64,000 bases of DNA, from assembly GCA_947503265.1 (NCBI GenBank), contig CANNDC010000021.1, positions 4,797 through 68,796 of the forward strand, in the 5' to 3' direction. Position 1 is the stretch's first letter, and each line of letters opens with the position of its first letter. Positions 1-13,994 of the stretch are shown here, piece by piece. The translations under genes and the position numbers were made by a program. The notes beneath the pieces are model-generated. The model was not told where the DNA came from. It worked only from the letters and a program-made list of their open reading frames with translations, and ran no database searches. This DNA comes from an uncultured Alteromonadaceae bacterium. GTDB lineage: Bacteria; Pseudomonadota; Gammaproteobacteria; Enterobacterales; Alteromonadaceae.

Positions 1-303
1 ATAGTCACAGGTGTGAGAGTACTCAAGCATAAAGAAACGCCAGGGCTAGGTGATAAAATCGAAACTAGAATCAGTGATTGGATCACCCGTTTTACTGGAT
101 TGACTTTAACTGATGAAAATACCGATAAGTGGAAAGTGAAGAAAGATGGTGGACAGTTTGATCAATTTACTGGTGCCACGATTACACCCAGAGCTGTAGT
201 AGGAGCAGTAAAAAACACACTAATTTATTTTGAACAGAATAAAAAAGCACTGTTTGCTGCACCGAACAACTGCGATGCACCTGACCAAAACCAAGCGCAC
301 TAA
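1..303 (+). CDS. rnfG: Rnf/Rsx electron transport complex subunit G (3' part; gene starts before the window)
   Basis: Frame open from base 1; motifs [12 protein letters not shown] and [15 protein letters not shown] (FMN-binding Thr); directly upstream of rnfE-nth. Confidence 0.95.
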
Positions 304-314
304 TTAGGTTATAG

Positions 315-1016
315 ATGATGAATGAATATCAACAACTAACATGGCAAGGAATATGGAAGAATAATCCCGCTATTGTGCAGCTTTTGGGTCTGTGTCCGCT
401 TCTTGCTGTCACTATGACAGTCGTAAACGGGCTGGGGCTGGGATTGGCAACCACACTTGTGCTAATCGGTTCAAATTGTACCGTCTCTCTAGTACGAAAT
501 TGGGTACCCAACGAAATTCGCATTCCCATTTTTGTGATGGTGATCGCCGCGTTTGTGACTATAGTTCAATTGGTCATGAATGCTTATACCTTTCAACTCT
601 ATGAAGCACTTGGCATCTTTATTCCGCTTATCGTAACCAATTGCGCCATTATAGGTAGAGCAGAAGCATATGCTTCCAAGAACCCGATTAAATATGCGGC
701 GTTTGACGGGGTCATGATGGGACTTGGATTTACATTAGTGTTAGTCATTCTAGGTGGTATGCGCGAATTATTAGGCTACGGAACATTGTTTTCAGGGGCT
801 GATTTATTACTGGGCGACTGGGCCAGTGCAATGAAAGTAACTGTTTTTGAAGCTGAAAGTCCATTTTTACTGGCGATTTTGCCCCCAGGAGCTTTCCTAG
901 GAATGGGGTTGCTCATTGCCCTAAAAAATGCGCTGAACAATCGCGTAGAGTCTTGGGTAGAAAGCGCTGACGAAGAAAAAGTCGTTCAACGCGCACGTGT
1001 TACAGCAGAGAGTTAA
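315..1016 (+). CDS. rnfE: Rnf/Rsx electron transport complex subunit E
   Basis: [20 protein letters not shown] and IPLIVTNC motifs; rnfG-rnfE-nth synteny. Confidence 0.97.
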
Positions 1017-1025
1017 TCCGACTAA

Positions 1026-1658
1026 ATGAATAAAGAGAAACGGCACGAGATCCTTACTCGATTAAGAGATGCTAATCCTAACCCTACAACAGAACTCAAC
1101 TATTCATCCCCGTTTGAGCTGCTTATTGCAGTCATTTTATCCGCTCAGGCAACCGATGTGGGTGTCAATAAAGCCACCGATAAACTTTATCCAGTCGCAA
1201 ACACGCCAGAAACTATCTTTGCATTAGGTGTCGAGGGTTTAAAGGAATATATCAAAACCATTGGCTTGTTTAATGCCAAAGCTGAAAACGTCATCAAGAC
1301 GTGTAAAATTCTTATGGAACAACATGGTTCGCAAGTACCCGAAAACCGAGAAGCACTTGAAGCGCTGCCAGGCGTTGGGCGCAAAACCGCAAATGTTGTT
1401 TTAAATACAGCGTTTGGCTGGCCAACCATCGCTGTGGATACCCATATTTTCAGGGTATCGAATCGAACCAAGCTTGCAATGGGTAAAAACGTCGATAAGG
1501 TCGAAGAAAAGTTACTCAAAGTTGTACCTTCCGAATTCAAAGTCGATGTGCATCACTGGCTAATTCTTCATGGCCGATACACCTGCATTGCACGCAAGCC
1601 AAGATGCGGTTCCTGCATTATTGAAGATTTGTGTGAGTTTAAGGATAAGACTGAGTGA
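1026..1658 (+). CDS. nth: Endonuclease III
   Basis: LLIAVILSAQATD, HhH motif LPGVGRKTANVVL, VDTH, 4Fe-4S motif C-X6-C-X2-C-X5-C. Confidence 0.99.
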   Translation: MNKEKRHEILTRLRDANPNPTTELNYSSPFELLIAVILSAQATDVGVNKATDKLYPVANTPETIFALGVEGLKEYIKTIGLFNAKAENVIKTCKILMEQHGSQVPENREALEALPGVGRKTANVVLNTAFGWPTIAVDTHIFRVSNRTKLAMGKNVDKVEEKLLKVVPSEFKVDVHHWLILHGRYTCIARKPRCGSCIIEDLCEFKDKTE

Positions 1659-1735
1659 GCACAAACAGTTTTGTGCCTAAAGCAAACGCAGGGTTTTAGA
1701 ACTAATGCTTGCGTTGTTTTAACAATCTAGCTAAA

Positions 1736-1764
1736 GTGTGTATATATTTAAAATTTATACACAC
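1736..1764. promoter_or_regulatory. Palindromic operator upstream of vapBC (probable autoregulation site)
   Basis: GTGTGTATA-TATTTAAAATT-TATACACAC: perfect 9-bp arms, near-perfect 29-bp palindrome ending 8 bp before the vapB ATG. Confidence 0.7.
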
Positions 1765-1772
1765 GGTGATAT

Positions 1773-1967
1773 ATGCGCACTAACATTGTTATCGACGATG
1801 AACTAATGTCTCAAGCGATAAAATCAACTGGATTGAGAACTAAAAAAGAAGTAGTTGAACAAGGCCTTAAACTTTTGATTCAAAGGAAAAAACAACAATC
1901 AATCAGGGAATTAAGGGGGCAAATCACTTGGGAAGGCAACCTCGATGAAATGAGGAGTAATGAGTGA
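1773..1967 (+). CDS. vapB: Type II antitoxin, VapB family
   Basis: 64 aa, MRTNIVIDDELM N-terminus typical of VapB; stop overlaps the GTG start of the PIN toxin. Confidence 0.88.
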   Translation: MRTNIVIDDELMSQAIKSTGLRTKKEVVEQGLKLLIQRKKQQSIRELRGQITWEGNLDEMRSNE

Positions 1968-2365
1968 TTCTCGCTGACACGAGTGTTTGGGTTGATTATT
2001 TAAATGGTCGAGTTACTCCGAAAACTGATTTTCTTGATGAGAGTCTGAAGGATGGGACGCTTGCCATGGGAGACCTAATTTTTCTTGAAATACTTCAGGG
2101 GATCGGAGACGACGAGCAGTTTCAGGAAGTGCATACTAGATTATCTTTGTTAGACCAATATTCGATGCTTAATACTGATTCGGTCGTGAGATATGCAAAA
2201 AATTATAGAAAACTGCGCAAAAAAGGAATTACGATTAGAAAGACAAACGACGTCGTGATTGCATCTTTCTGCATTCAAGAGAACATACCATTACTGTTCT
2301 CTGATAGAGATTTCAAACCATTTATAGAACATTTTGGCCTTAGGCCAGCTTACCTAGAGACATGA
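1964..2365 (+). CDS. vapC: Type II toxin, VapC PIN-domain ribonuclease
   Basis: ILADTSVWVDYL, E in IFLEILQG, TNDVVIA and LLFSDRDF acidic PIN motifs. Confidence 0.92.
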   Translation: MILADTSVWVDYLNGRVTPKTDFLDESLKDGTLAMGDLIFLEILQGIGDDEQFQEVHTRLSLLDQYSMLNTDSVVRYAKNYRKLRKKGITIRKTNDVVIASFCIQENIPLLFSDRDFKPFIEHFGLRPAYLET

Positions 2366-2616
2366 GCACTAGCAAACTGCTGTGAGGACTTTGCACAGAA
2401 ACTCTTTGATTTACAGCTTCAATTTCTTTCCAGACTGTCTGCAAGTATGCCAATGGTTTTTGAGAAAAAACATTAGCCATGTAACATACAAAAACATAAT
2501 TCTATAAAAATAAACTCGGTCTTTATTACGACATTATATTGCTTAGTTATATTGACCAGCATCAATCCAAATGCCGTGGCAAATGAAACAGGTTCAATAG
2601 TAAAGACAAAAGAATG

Positions 2617-2672
2617 GATGCGGTTCCTGCATCATTGAAGACTTGTGTGAATTTCAGGATAAGACAGAGTAA
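2617..2672 (+). repeat. Direct repeat of the last 56 nt of nth (copy 2)
   Basis: 50/56 nt identical to 1603-1658; reads CGSCIIEDLCEFQDKTE* vs CGSCIIEDLCEFKDKTE*. Confidence 0.97.
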
Positions 2673-2698
2673 ATAACTGTCCGCAAGTATCTTCGAAC

Positions 2699-3877
2699 TC
2701 AAGGTTTCAATACGTTATCGCTACCTTCCTGATTTAAGTTTAGCGCTCGTATTGGGTATGGAATCACTATCCCTTCTTCTGCGAACCTTTTATGTAGGGC
2801 TTTGATAAATTCGGATTTAATAAAAAACCGATTAAAATATTCCTGAGCTCGCAGCATCACTGTCAAATTGATACTAGAGTCATCAAAACCCGTAAAGATG
2901 ACAAATGTGTCATATTCGGAGATACCCCATTTGTGGCTTTTCAACACTTGTTGGGCAACTTCAAGCGTCACTTTTTCAACTTGATCTAGGTCAGAATCAT
3001 AGTGCACACCAAGATCTACCGGCACAGACAGCTGTTTTTCAGGATAGTAATAGTTGATTATTTTAGACTGTGCGAGCTTGCTGTTAGGCATAATAACGAT
3101 GTTGTTTGGAAGCATTTTTATCCAGGTGGAGCGCCATCCTATCCTTTCGACGAAGCCTTGTTCACCTGAATCTAGCTCTATAAAGTCGCCTACTCTGATC
3201 GGTTTATCAGCCAGCATTTGAATGCCTGAGAAAAAGTTCTCCAGCGTTGGTTGCAGCGCTAGAGCTACCGCGAGGGAGCCAATACCTAAAGAAGCGACAA
3301 GAGGCGTGATCGAAACACCGACATTGCTAAGTATAATTAACACACCAATGACAATAATCACACCGCGCAGAAGACCTCTTAATAAGGGACCACTGCTGCG
3401 CAAACCACTCCCCTTTGAAATAATGCGTGTAATACTCATACGAGCAAAGTGATCGGTGAAAACTAACAATGATACGATCATAAGCAGCAATGCAACTGTA
3501 TTGATCTGAGTCGCCCACGTAATTACCGTTTCGTCATAGAGTTGTACAAGCTTTTCTGTGGCCTTTAAACTTATTGTAACTATCAACAGACTTAAGGGAC
3601 GTTTGGCAGCACGCACTGCAATGCCAGACCACTCATAGTTTTTTGAGTGATTCAACTCTCTTAAATACATGTATAAAAAGCGTTTCATCAACCAAAGGCT
3701 AGACAACACGATGAAGAAGAATGTTGGCCCTATTGCCCAATAAGGAATCCACTCAGTTAGCCAACTAAGAATATTTGTAATTGCGGTCAAGAGAGTATGC
3801 ATCCTGTTAAAGTACTTAATAGCCTTTAAAGCAATTATCACACCACTAAAACAAACCACATTAATAGTGTAGTTCAT
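2699..3877 (-). CDS. Small-conductance mechanosensitive channel (MscS family); start codon uncertain (3877 or 3802)
   Basis: ASLGIGSLAVALALQPTLENFFSG, KPIRVGDFI, GFVERIGWRSTWI, IIMPNSKL motifs. Confidence 0.92.
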   Translation of the reverse strand: MNYTINVVCFSGVIIALKAIKYFNRMHTLLTAITNILSWLTEWIPYWAIGPTFFFIVLSSLWLMKRFLYMYLRELNHSKNYEWSGIAVRAAKRPLSLLIVTISLKATEKLVQLYDETVITWATQINTVALLLMIVSLLVFTDHFARMSITRIISKGSGLRSSGPLLRGLLRGVIIVIGVLIILSNVGVSITPLVASLGIGSLAVALALQPTLENFFSGIQMLADKPIRVGDFIELDSGEQGFVERIGWRSTWIKMLPNNIVIMPNSKLAQSKIINYYYPEKQLSVPVDLGVHYDSDLDQVEKVTLEVAQQVLKSHKWGISEYDTFVIFTGFDDSSINLTVMLRAQEYFNRFFIKSEFIKALHKRFAEEGIVIPYPIRALNLNQEGSDNVLKP

Positions 3878-4075
3878 TGAAATATATCAATATTTGATGT
3901 CCCTGCTGACGCTATCGCACTCTATCCATGCAACACTGCACCATGTTGATGTTAATCAATATCGTAAGTAAAGTTAGTGCAGATTGCATATTTGCTTTGG
4001 CGCTTTTGCTATCGTTGATTTGCAAGGATCATAATCATCTAATCTTTACCTTGTTTATGTCTACTTTCCTTATCT

Positions 4076-4321
4076 TTTGGTTAGAATTCCATAGCGGCAG
4101 ACACCCGCATTTCACGCGTTTCCAATCGCACCAAACTGGCAATGGGTAAACACGCCGATCAGGTAGGACAAAAGCTCCTGAAAGTAGCGCCTAAAGAATT
4201 CAAGGTAGACGCGCATCACGGGCCAATTCTTCCTGGCCATTACACCTATTTTGCACGCAAGCCTAGATGCGAAGCCTGAATCTTTGAAGAATTGTATGAG
4301 TTTAAGGATAAGACGGACTAG
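4076..4321 (+). pseudogene. Decayed copy of the 3' 246 nt of nth (copy 3)
   Basis: Colinear without indels with 1413-1658; 52/76 aa identical over 4091-4318; nonsense codons replace W (TAG 4082) and C (TGA); three of four FeS cysteines lost. Confidence 0.95.
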
Positions 4322-4410
4322 GTAAATGCCTTACGAAAGCTGTGAATTGAACGGTTCAACGCACAGCGCAAATTTTTAATTTGTACTTTCATATGACAAT
4401 TTTTATTCAG

Positions 4411-4779
4411 TTACTCGGTGCAAAGATTTGGAATGGCTAGTTTGCTAAATAGATGGGGCGAAGTTACAGCCGAAGAAGGGTATACTTTTAAGGTTTCTTG
4501 AAAATCAGGGTGGTTAAAAGCGTTTCTGAAGGTTTCGACAGATTCCCAAACAGCATAATTCATAAATACGGTGCTCCCTGCTATGCCCCTGTGTAATTGA
4601 GTTGAAATATATCCAGGCTGTTTTTTCATCCAATTCGCGTCATTTTCCCACGCTTTTAAAAGTGCTGAAATATCTTCTTCTGCTACATTAAAAATGTTTA
4701 CAAGCACTACAGGCGACTGCTCTGTTTTTAGTTGCTCAAAAATAGGTATTTGCTTATCAAGGGGTTGCATATCTATCAT
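4411..4779 (-). CDS. Antibiotic biosynthesis monooxygenase (ABM) family protein
   Basis: QPGYISTQLHRG...FMNYAVWES motif, 122 aa. Confidence 0.85.
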   Translation of the reverse strand: MIDMQPLDKQIPIFEQLKTEQSPVVLVNIFNVAEEDISALLKAWENDANWMKKQPGYISTQLHRGIAGSTVFMNYAVWESVETFRNAFNHPDFQETLKVYPSSAVTSPHLFSKLAIPNLCTE

Positions 4780-4834
4780 ATAAATTCTCCAGTATATGTT
4801 TTCAAATATTCTTAATTCAAACTTCTTGCATAGA

Positions 4835-5287
4835 TTAGTTAGATGCGTTTGGTCTTAACTTGCCTGTCATTTGAAGGCCATCTCTAAAATTCAAACCCAT
4901 CAGTATTAGATTGGTAGCACCAGCCATTAGCTCCACCCCCTGTACGATATAAAATTTTGTATCAAAGGAACCTGAACTTGCCCAAAGGCTCAGAAAAATC
5001 GCACAGGGCGTGAGAACAAATAGTCCATTCACAGCTATAAATGGCATTCGTTTTCTCTTCTTACCGATCAATTGGCCTTTTCTGTTTTTGCTTAAGGAAA
5101 AACCTGTACCGCCAACTAATGCCATTGCGGGAATTAAGATGTACAAACCTGGGTTAACGACTAAGGTTTTTACTATTGTGATCGCTTCTTTCGAGCCGAA
5201 TAACTCGACAGCGATGGTAGAAGTAAAAAAAGTCGCAATACAAAAGGTTGCAACGATAGCAGCGACAAGATGTATATTACGTTTCAT
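4835..5287 (-). CDS. Conserved multi-pass membrane protein of unknown function (likely start MKRNIHL at 5287)
   Basis: Four hydrophobic segments and a KRMPFIAVNG motif; the ORF-track extension to 5392 overlaps the operator and marR. Confidence 0.75.
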   Translation of the reverse strand: MKRNIHLVAAIVATFCIATFFTSTIAVELFGSKEAITIVKTLVVNPGLYILIPAMALVGGTGFSLSKNRKGQLIGKKRKRMPFIAVNGLFVLTPCAIFLSLWASSGSFDTKFYIVQGVELMAGATNLILMGLNFRDGLQMTGKLRPNASN

Positions 5288-13739: not shown

Positions 13740-13937
13740 AAGTAATATAGATTCTGTGGTAAAAAGAGAGTTAAAAAATCACTGAATTGATTGCTAATAA
13801 ATAAATGTAGCATGGTGTAAAAGTAGTAGGAATGATTAACCATTTATGATTTTTACTTTTGTAAATCAATTCAACGTAAAATGTAACGGCTACACAGCCC
13901 TTTAATAGCTTAAAAAGGCGCCTCTTTGGGAGCAAAG

Positions 13938-13994
13938 CGTTGTGGTTCCTATCCCTTGGAAGATCAGTTGGAGCCCAAGGATAAGATGAGTTAA
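13938..13994 (+). repeat. Highly decayed copy of the last 57 nt of nth (copy 4)
   Basis: Reads RCGSYPLEDQLEPKDKMS* vs native RCGSCIIEDLCEFKDKTE*: 10/18 residues identical, ungapped, stop at the same codon. Confidence 0.75.

Follow-up and report, generated by a model that had tools for sequence, protein, structure and literature searches.

A probable displaced nth 3′-end behind an intact endonuclease III gene and the stacking of cassettes at this site in Alteromonadaceae

Introduction

Prophage e14 and phage 21 of E. coli insert at the icd gene by replacing its 3′-end and leave behind the pseudo-end icdC, and many genomic islands target tRNA genes in the same manner. The locus described here, at which cassettes are found behind the nth gene, resembles this kind of replacement in that the incoming DNA appears to supply a substitute 3′-end, the old end is retained as the direct repeat on the far side and the differences between the two ends are mostly silent. 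The nth cassettes differ from icd-type elements in their size of 1-5 kb, in the lack of an integrase or excisionase, in forming arrays with up to five nth copies, in the length of the replaced piece (about 82 codons) and in the conserved 17-nt motif ahead of it. In other words, a repeated target end and different alleles, as expected of an integrative element, are present at nth, whereas an integrase belonging to the element is not.

Additive flexible genomic islands have been described in Alteromonas (Lopez-Perez and Rodriguez-Valera 2016, PMC4898812). The hot spots of these islands are characterized by variable cassette numbers, quick turnover and movement between species, and downstream of some of the inserted cassettes a part of the target gene is found again and marks the insertion (PMC4898812). 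tRNA or tmRNA genes are found at six of the eight hot spots, and endonuclease III is unmentioned (PMC4898812). The nth arrays share with the additive islands the bacterial family, the variable cassettes and the partial target repeat, but they differ from most of them in having a protein-coding target and in that every cassette carries a long coding replacement. We regard the nth array as an additive genomic island with gene-end replacement, that is, as an added member of an already-known type.

The accumulation of elements at a single site is also the basis of the tycheposon arrays of Prochlorococcus, in which successive one-site integrations push older elements outward (bioRxiv 10.1101/2020.12.28.424599). 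Tycheposons, tandem accretion with cis-mobilisable elements (CIMEs, for example at ICESt1) and the nth arrays have in common the persistence of integrase-less elements between repeated att fragments. For the first two, however, integrase-bearing elements using the same site are known, whereas for nth none was found beside the arrays or in the searched phage, plasmid and viral collections, which are incomplete. Restriction-modification modules with long target duplication, which have no mobility genes, are also flanked by direct repeats, with lengths from tens to hundreds of bp (Furuta et al. 2010, PMC2853133); these repeats are near-identical copies of the target, variable in length, and may overlap the 3′-end of a gene (PMC2853133). 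The canonical nth copies are unlike such duplications in their fixed edge, in their motif and in their near-saturated silent divergence. Within the nth array, only the step that involves vapBC and a 56-nt relic of nth could fit a long target duplication, with an identity of 89% and a P of 0.009-0.08 for its silent changes.

Integrons, finally, resemble the nth arrays in their small promiscuous cassettes, fixed site, repeated element and toxin-antitoxin cargo, and in both cases any recombinase would be provided in trans. The nth array differs from an integron in that attC, attI and an adjacent intI are all lacking (the intI gene lies on contig C18 and the window on contig C21, with the rnf operon upstream of the nth array), in that its cargo has both orientations and often several genes per cassette, and in that its repeat is the end of a coding gene. 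Xer-dependent modules of the IMEX or pdif type are recognized by junctions with a dif-like 28-mer that has a XerC and a XerD arm, and this 28-mer is absent from the nth array.

The nth locus and its relic

The window is the whole stretch of 64,000 nt that was analysed, from an uncultured Alteromonadaceae bacterium, and the features discussed here are collected in Table 1. The nth gene is located behind rnfE, as the terminal gene of the rnf-nth string, and is followed by vapBC, by the relic (relic 1), by the MscS gene on the opposite strand and by the motif together with an older remnant (relic 2). Direct repeats of the nth 3′-end therefore border the inserted DNA on both sides, and nth itself is intact.

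Table 1. Features of the nth region in the window (positions are those of the window)
Feature	Position	Strand	Remarks
nth, endonuclease III, 210 aa, intact	1026..1658	+	Pfam HhH-GPD, HHH and EndIII 4Fe-4S domains; from the ORF list
Resident nth 3′ segment, nt 388-633, from codon F130	1413..1658	+	Repeat family D1
Resident 56-nt tail, R-CGSCIIEDLCEFKDKTE-stop	1603..1658	+	Partner of the relic in an ungapped comparison
vapBC toxin-antitoxin module	1715..2363	+	Pfam VapB_antitoxin and PIN; within the 1659-2616 insert
vapBC parts: operator; vapB; vapC	vapB 1773-1967; vapC 1964-2365	+	
Relic of nth (the main finding)	2617..2672	+	5′-truncated, probable former nth 3′-end, nth nt 578-633
MscS-type mechanosensitive channel gene	2699..3802	-	Pfam MS_channel; putative cargo of the cassette of the relic
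Cassette-end motif GTCTACTTTCCTTATCT	4059..4075	+	Family consensus ATCTACnTTnnTTATnn; at a fixed offset before 17 of 24 remnants
Older full-length nth 3′ remnant (relic 2), nt 388-633	4076..4321	+	75% identical to the resident copy
Possible fourth nth tail, heavily decayed	13931..13994	+	Local alignment score 39; marginal

When aligned without gaps, the relic and the resident tail agree at 50 of 56 positions. The differences, given from resident to relic, are ATT>ATC, GAT>GAC, GAG>GAA, AAG>CAG (K>Q), ACT>ACA and TGA>TAA; five of the six, including the swap of the stop codon, are silent and the sixth is the K>Q replacement, exactly as listed in an earlier note on this DNA. The match is far above chance expectation (E 3.8e-14 in a search against one genome), and it was also recovered as repeat family D2. 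The homology has sharp edges, at position 2617 and at the stop codon, and the flanking DNA is unrelated. The relic codes for the last three cysteines of the Fe-S loop and lacks both nth nt 388-577 and the upstream motif. An assembly artefact can be dismissed, because the relic is found in the same place in L096, a sister strain that was assembled independently (Logan). As for a "signal-peptide stump" ahead of the relic, the frame has no in-frame start.

The older remnant contains two in-frame stops and has a dN/dS of 0.23. A nonsense TAG is found in the Trp codon of its FGWP (4082-4084); in nth copy B of Paraglaciecola aquimarina the same FGWP Trp codon is mutated, to TGA instead, and this doubly hit codon is within the presumed recombination core. 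The alignment of the possible fourth tail scores 39, whereas none of 200 shuffles scored above 36.

Arrays of nth 3′-ends in Alteromonadaceae

The repetition of the nth end is not confined to the window. Behind nth, one to four extra copies of its 3′-end are found in about a quarter of the sampled Alteromonadaceae species (401 genomes, of which 339 with a match and about 85 with at least two copies; some 30 genera), and in these arrays the copies are 1-7 kb apart. Pseudoalteromonas, Alteromonas, Colwellia, Thalassotalea, Glaciecola, Paraglaciecola and Aliiglaciecola are among the array-carrying genera of the sample. The unit that recurs downstream corresponds to the resident 3′ segment, nt 388-633. 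Specifically, nearly all extra copies of the relatives, 13 of which were fetched, begin at nt 388, which is codon F130 of FGWPTIAVDTH; the copies normally measure 242-246 nt, and the homology always stops at the stop codon. At the same chromosomal site, related genomes have cassettes that differ in number and kind, and the partial nth repeat is found downstream of the inserted cassettes.

The nth 3′ copies of the family are preceded by a conserved motif, ATCTACnTTnnTTAT. It was found at a fixed offset directly 5′ of 17 of the 24 remnants, which had been located without using the motif, and the DNA upstream of it is unrelated between cassettes. Exact matches to the motif plus the core were obtained from Alteromonadaceae only (27 stretches). 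The cargo is very diverse and unrelated between cassettes, with 71 ORFs that fall into 56 clusters, and it includes AraC and LytTR regulators, esterases, SDR and GST enzymes, transporters, channels and toxin-antitoxin pairs, in both orientations and often with several genes in one cassette. Near relatives with Nth 92-94% identical provide further examples: in L100 nth is followed by ccdAB, while L097 and L098 have nth, DUF4440-LytTR, an 88-aa nth remnant ORF and hipBA. Addiction modules seem to be a frequent cargo at the nth site.

Association of the relic with the MscS cassette

The sister strain L096, a 6.6-kb Logan contig whose Nth is 99% identical to that of the window in a protein search, is collinear with window positions 1-5079 without gaps, at 97.07% identity. 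The parts follow one another in L096 as they do in the window, and the relic has the same left edge. The divergence between the two strains is unevenly distributed. It is 1.4-2.6% in rnfG, rnfE and nth, 0.5% in vapBC and 2.0% in the spacer ahead of the relic; it is 8.9% in the relic (5 of 56 positions), 6.8% in MscS (62 silent and 18 replacement changes) and 6.6% in the spacer beyond MscS; the motif has no change in 17 positions and the long remnant one in 246. The block that begins with the relic and stops just short of the motif has 99 mismatches in 1442 positions (6.9%) versus 50 in 3637 (1.4%) elsewhere (Fisher P 2e-22), and it was therefore exchanged as a unit between strains. At the other extreme, the vapBC stretch (window 1801-2400) is 0.5% diverged from L096, against about 2% in the surrounding backbone; either strong constraint or a more recent shared acquisition could account for this low value.

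The L096 relic reads RCGSCIIEDLCEFEDKIE-stop, with the replacements K>E and T>I. Over its first 38 nt it equals the resident tail of the window, and 37 of them match the resident tail of L096 itself, from which the L096 relic differs at five positions spread over all codon positions.

The MscS gene, called with 367 aa in L096, has its closest homologue outside the window and L096 in the nth array of P. aquimarina (90% aa identity). The order there is nth, a PAS-kinase cassette, a truncated nth tail, a gap of 26 nt, MscS, a variant of the motif and a decayed nth copy. The spacing between tail and MscS, measured from the MscS stop codon, is likewise 26 nt in the window; the P. aquimarina tail is truncated at about codon 160, unlike the relic. 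Between the window and P. aquimarina, nucleotide identity is 86% in MscS and 70-73% in rnfE and the 5′ backbone of nth. The shared 26-nt spacing, together with an MscS identity above that of the backbone, indicates that the tail belongs to the MscS cassette and that this unit of tail and MscS predates vapBC and has moved between genera. Homologues of MscS with 82-86% identity in other genomes are not beside nth.

As for the sequence of the two tails, that of P. aquimarina shares four of the six states by which the relic is distinguished (ATC, GAC, the third-position A and TAA), while GAA and CAG are specific to the strain of the window. Over 54 positions the relic and the P. aquimarina tail agree at 44, which is no closer than the relic is to ordinary nth tails. 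The four shared states are weak evidence, each of them being common in the family and the chance of all four about 0.025; the orthology of the two tails is proposed from their position, not from their sequence.

Silent changes and the history of the relic

The earlier note had read the silent differences as the mark of purifying selection, and the relic as a nth terminus that once worked and was later displaced. A random single-base change in the 56-mer is silent with a probability of 0.17-0.30, the range being set by transition bias. Under neutral drift of both copies, the probability that at least five of six changes are silent is 0.0007-0.011; it is 0.009-0.08 if one copy drifts while the other accepts silent changes only, which is the fairer null for six sites. 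Taken alone, the silent excess is suggestive and no more, since it is borderline against the one-copy-drift null. The silent pattern on which selection had been claimed is confirmed at five of the six sites. The replacements carried by the relic, K>Q here and K>E with T>I in L096, show that it is now decaying and no longer under selection. The reading as a displaced, once-working end holds in substance, with the context (the MscS spacing, the copies in the family and the decoupling of the nth 3′ part) outweighing the six sites.

The same note expected that some nth orthologue would match the relic better than the resident allele does. The 56-mer was compared with the nth ends and remnants of 60 relatives, and none did so, the best being a tie at 50 of 56 with nth of Aliiglaciecola litoralis. 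The 56-mer had no match in two metagenome pattern scans, and exact-protein look-ups of Nth, RnfE and MscS returned no conspecific record. We regard this comparison as underpowered rather than as a refutation, given how short and conserved the 56-mer is and that the records include no conspecific genome without vapBC. Moreover, the resident tail may itself be an imported end, so that calling it the native end, as was done earlier, is unproven: its TGA stop is unique among 29 family orthologues. The CAG of the relic is unique in the same set, and apart from these two states the polarisation of the six differences by outgroups is ambiguous.

Former working ends and mosaic nth genes

In 13 relatives, comparison of the intact 242-nt remnants with the resident end of the same genome gave dN/dS values of 0.01-0.15 and silent-site differences of 0.25-0.88, near saturation, against a between-genus average of 0.78. 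Judged from their sequences, the canonical copies of the family appear to be former working ends and clearly not in-situ duplicates.

A particular case is that of G033, whose resident nth has an in-frame insertion of 27 nt that recurs in its remnant 1 and in no other fetched array genome; 34.5 silent and 3.5 replacement changes separate the two copies. The insertion, LKDNEGRYF, follows just after TTTGGCTGGC in a functional nth (L035), exactly at the cassette junction site, and contains the cassette-end motif in inverted form (ATAATGAAGGTAGAT). It may be the scar of a wrong-orientation recombination at the partly palindromic TTGGCTGGCCAA. The same nth variant appears to be present in L061, an uncultured Paraglaciecola, on the basis of the common MYDLHHW signature.

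The two parts of nth also differ in their divergence between genomes. Between the sister species G001 and G003 the identity is 98% for nth nt 1-387 and 93% for nt 388-630; for distant congeners it is about 70% upstream and about 80% downstream of the same boundary. The silent divergence of the copies and this decoupling of the 3′ from the 5′ part therefore indicate that nth ends have been replaced repeatedly. Between G001 and G003 the divergence climbs gradually through nt 388-633, with no jump at nt 388. In the comparison of G007 with G001 and G003 (L036, L041, L047), a patch from nt 118 to nt 387 is 3.9% diverged and ends at about nt 388, while the divergence of its flanks (rnfE with nth nt 1-117, and nt 388-633) amounts to 12-17%; the patch looks like a recent interspecies recombination tract with its right end at the cassette junction. 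Homologous recombination thus acts both inside and beside the nth repeat.

vapBC and the 56-nt edge

The left edge of the relic is exceptional. The tail copies that were listed number about 90, from 41 partly overlapping loci, and among them the relic alone is reduced to the tail; all the other listed copies retain recognisable nth sequence upstream of the CGxC codons, where the relic has unrelated sequence. A second regular crossover site at the 56-nt edge, that is, at the R-C-G-S codons, is not supported, the edge being unique among the roughly 90 copies and the fourth copy of the window marginal. The edge would rather result from a secondary loss of the motif and of nt 388-577, or from a one-off junction formed at the arrival of vapBC. 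Such an edge is unusual in the family, and the route by which vapBC entered may therefore have been another one.

The vapBC module is 76% identical in nucleotides to that of G325 (L084 1310-1960), with 75% aa identity for VapC. In G325 an attC-like repeat of 65 nt comes after the module, with a second copy 431 nt further downstream, and so the G325 module is part of an integron-type array. The same toxin-antitoxin module is, in other words, an integron-type cassette in G325 and an nth-array insert in the window. vapBC was absent from the 11 other sampled genomes of the genus of the window; the idea of vapBC as a conserved nth cassette was rejected, as its homologues in the family are not located at nth.

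Search for a recombinase

In the 12-13 array genomes, no match to PF00589 or PF00239, and hence no tyrosine or serine recombinase gene, was found on any nth contig; where nth is on a large contig or a complete chromosome, the recombinase-free range extends to about 400 kb from nth. The 25 most frequent Pfam families of the cargo include no recombinase. A serine recombinase was rejected as the general catalyst, given that five array genomes have none at all. Phage, plasmid and viral-contig collections, which are incomplete, contained no copy of the motif-nth unit, and no circular cassette was found. A hairpin at the junction was likewise rejected: the pairing amounts to merely 5 bp at -1 kcal/mol, and there is no conserved fold.

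A cassette model and its alternatives

The relic is probably an nth 3′-end that dates from the time when the MscS cassette stood first behind nth. According to the model that we favour, the nth 3′ region is a hot spot for the stacking of 1-5 kb cassettes in Alteromonadaceae, and a cassette would be made up of nth from nt 388 to its stop codon (the 3′ segment), the cargo and the 17-nt end motif. Upon insertion, the incoming nth segment would be joined to the resident 5′ part, leaving nth intact, and the previous nth end would stay downstream with the motif directly ahead of it. Newer cassettes would enter on the nth side and older ones would be pushed outward. Relic 1 would then have lost its first 186 nt and the motif, either by deletion or through a non-canonical junction tied to the arrival of vapBC, and would have drifted since the truncation (K>Q); we infer both the timing and the cause of this truncation.

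As for the catalyst, a recombinase encoded elsewhere that recognises the motif and the F-G-W-P codons (TTYGGCTGGCC) is the most likely candidate, and homologous recombination between nth copies would subsequently shuffle the cassettes among relatives. A site-specific step in trans is suggested by the conserved motif, by the fixed edge at nt 388 and by the high divergence between neighbouring copies, while the recombinant patches and the coincidence of block ends with nth copies suggest that homologous recombination also moves cassettes. We hold this two-layer model, with its presumed catalyst, with moderate confidence. A bolder proposal, which we advance only tentatively, is that of an nth-anchored platform for cassette capture, integron-like in its working but differently built, with docking at F130-G-W-P, an 82-codon end plus the 17-nt motif, and a recombinase in trans or a host factor.

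By itself, the relic would be an ordinary scar; in its context, it marks a widespread hot spot at nth. Each insertion would swap the last third of a conserved DNA-repair gene, and as a consequence of end swapping nth is a mosaic with its 3′ part off the species tree, which matters for phylogeny or synteny work that uses nth or its neighbourhood. Moreover, the existence of recombinase-less cassettes with a conserved motif makes the question of their movement testable in culturable marine bacteria.

Homologous recombination alone, without a dedicated recombinase, is a possible though doubtful explanation of the arrays. The nth 3′ fragment would act as a portable homology arm for RecA-dependent exchange, by Campbell-type or double crossover after DNA uptake, and the nt-388 edge and the motif would derive from one ancestral construct. 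No recombinase is linked to the arrays, and the nth 3′ DNA is unusually conserved, with 80% identity even to E. coli and a third-position identity higher in the 3′ than in the 5′ part. The divergence gradient between G001 and G003 fits crossovers inside the repeat better than a fixed point, the patch in G007 agrees with it, and the ends of the block exchanged between the two strains coincide with nth copies. However, the 17-nt motif is non-coding and has been kept across genera while the adjoining upstream DNA is unrelated, and its lack of any change between the two strains, against 6.6% in the neighbouring spacer, implies selection on the motif itself. In addition, copies within one array are often about 20% diverged and silent-saturated, which makes them a poor substrate for RecA, and with 56 clusters among 71 cargo ORFs new DNA must repeatedly join the motif-nth unit. 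An in-situ target duplication concerns the relic rather than the arrays: vapBC would have inserted behind nth and copied its last 56 bp, both copies drifting afterwards, so that the relic would be the positional original and the resident tail a copy, not an import. This is improbable, given that the canonical copies of the family are clearly not in-situ duplicates, that four of the six differences are also found in the P. aquimarina tail (chance about 0.025) and that the relics of the two strains, 8.9% apart inside a recombinant block, cannot both be local, at least one having been imported. The phenomenon is nonetheless documented (PMC2853133), and it would suit an addiction-type cargo, a repeat that is short and atypical for the family and a silent excess that is borderline (P 0.009-0.08), as well as the L096 relic, whose first 38 nt equal the resident tail of the window and whose differences fall at all codon positions.

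A system served by the host IntI, as in an integron, or by XerCD at a dif-like site is very unlikely. The idea arises from the large chromosomal integron of genome G000, with its IntI on C18, and from the closest vapBC homologue being in an array of attC-like repeats; yet the attC consensus of the genome itself is unmatched in the window, and no GTTRRRY core is found at the junctions. IntI-like genes do not track the arrays: they are present in the array-less G005 and G010, have an in-frame stop in the array-bearing G001, G003 and G006, and are absent from the array-bearing G026. On these grounds, the lack of attC in the window and the distribution of IntI, the integron idea was rejected. XerC and XerD, for their part, are the sole tyrosine recombinases common to all array genomes, and motif and core can be written in the dif-like form of 11+6+11 nt, but the motif agrees with the dif of the genome at only 8/11 and 4/11 positions, with the matches at non-conserved positions of the motif, and this weak similarity led to the rejection of the Xer/dif idea. 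The lack of a conserved hairpin speaks against either variant.

The integron of G000 (C18:69000-78589, L095) is itself of considerable size: behind an intact IntI-like gene it has at least 15 attC sites, each of about 117 nt and with a spacing of 340-950 nt, and more than 150 further attC matches are found on C30, C32, C36 and C38. The dif site of the same genome, TATACGCATAATGTATATTATGTTAAAT, is on C6:58514-63129, about 2 kb from two near-identical tyrosine-recombinase matches. The longest Met-initiated reading of these matches is 179 aa, within open frames of 423 and 193 aa, and they could represent a Xer-exploiting element or its remains.
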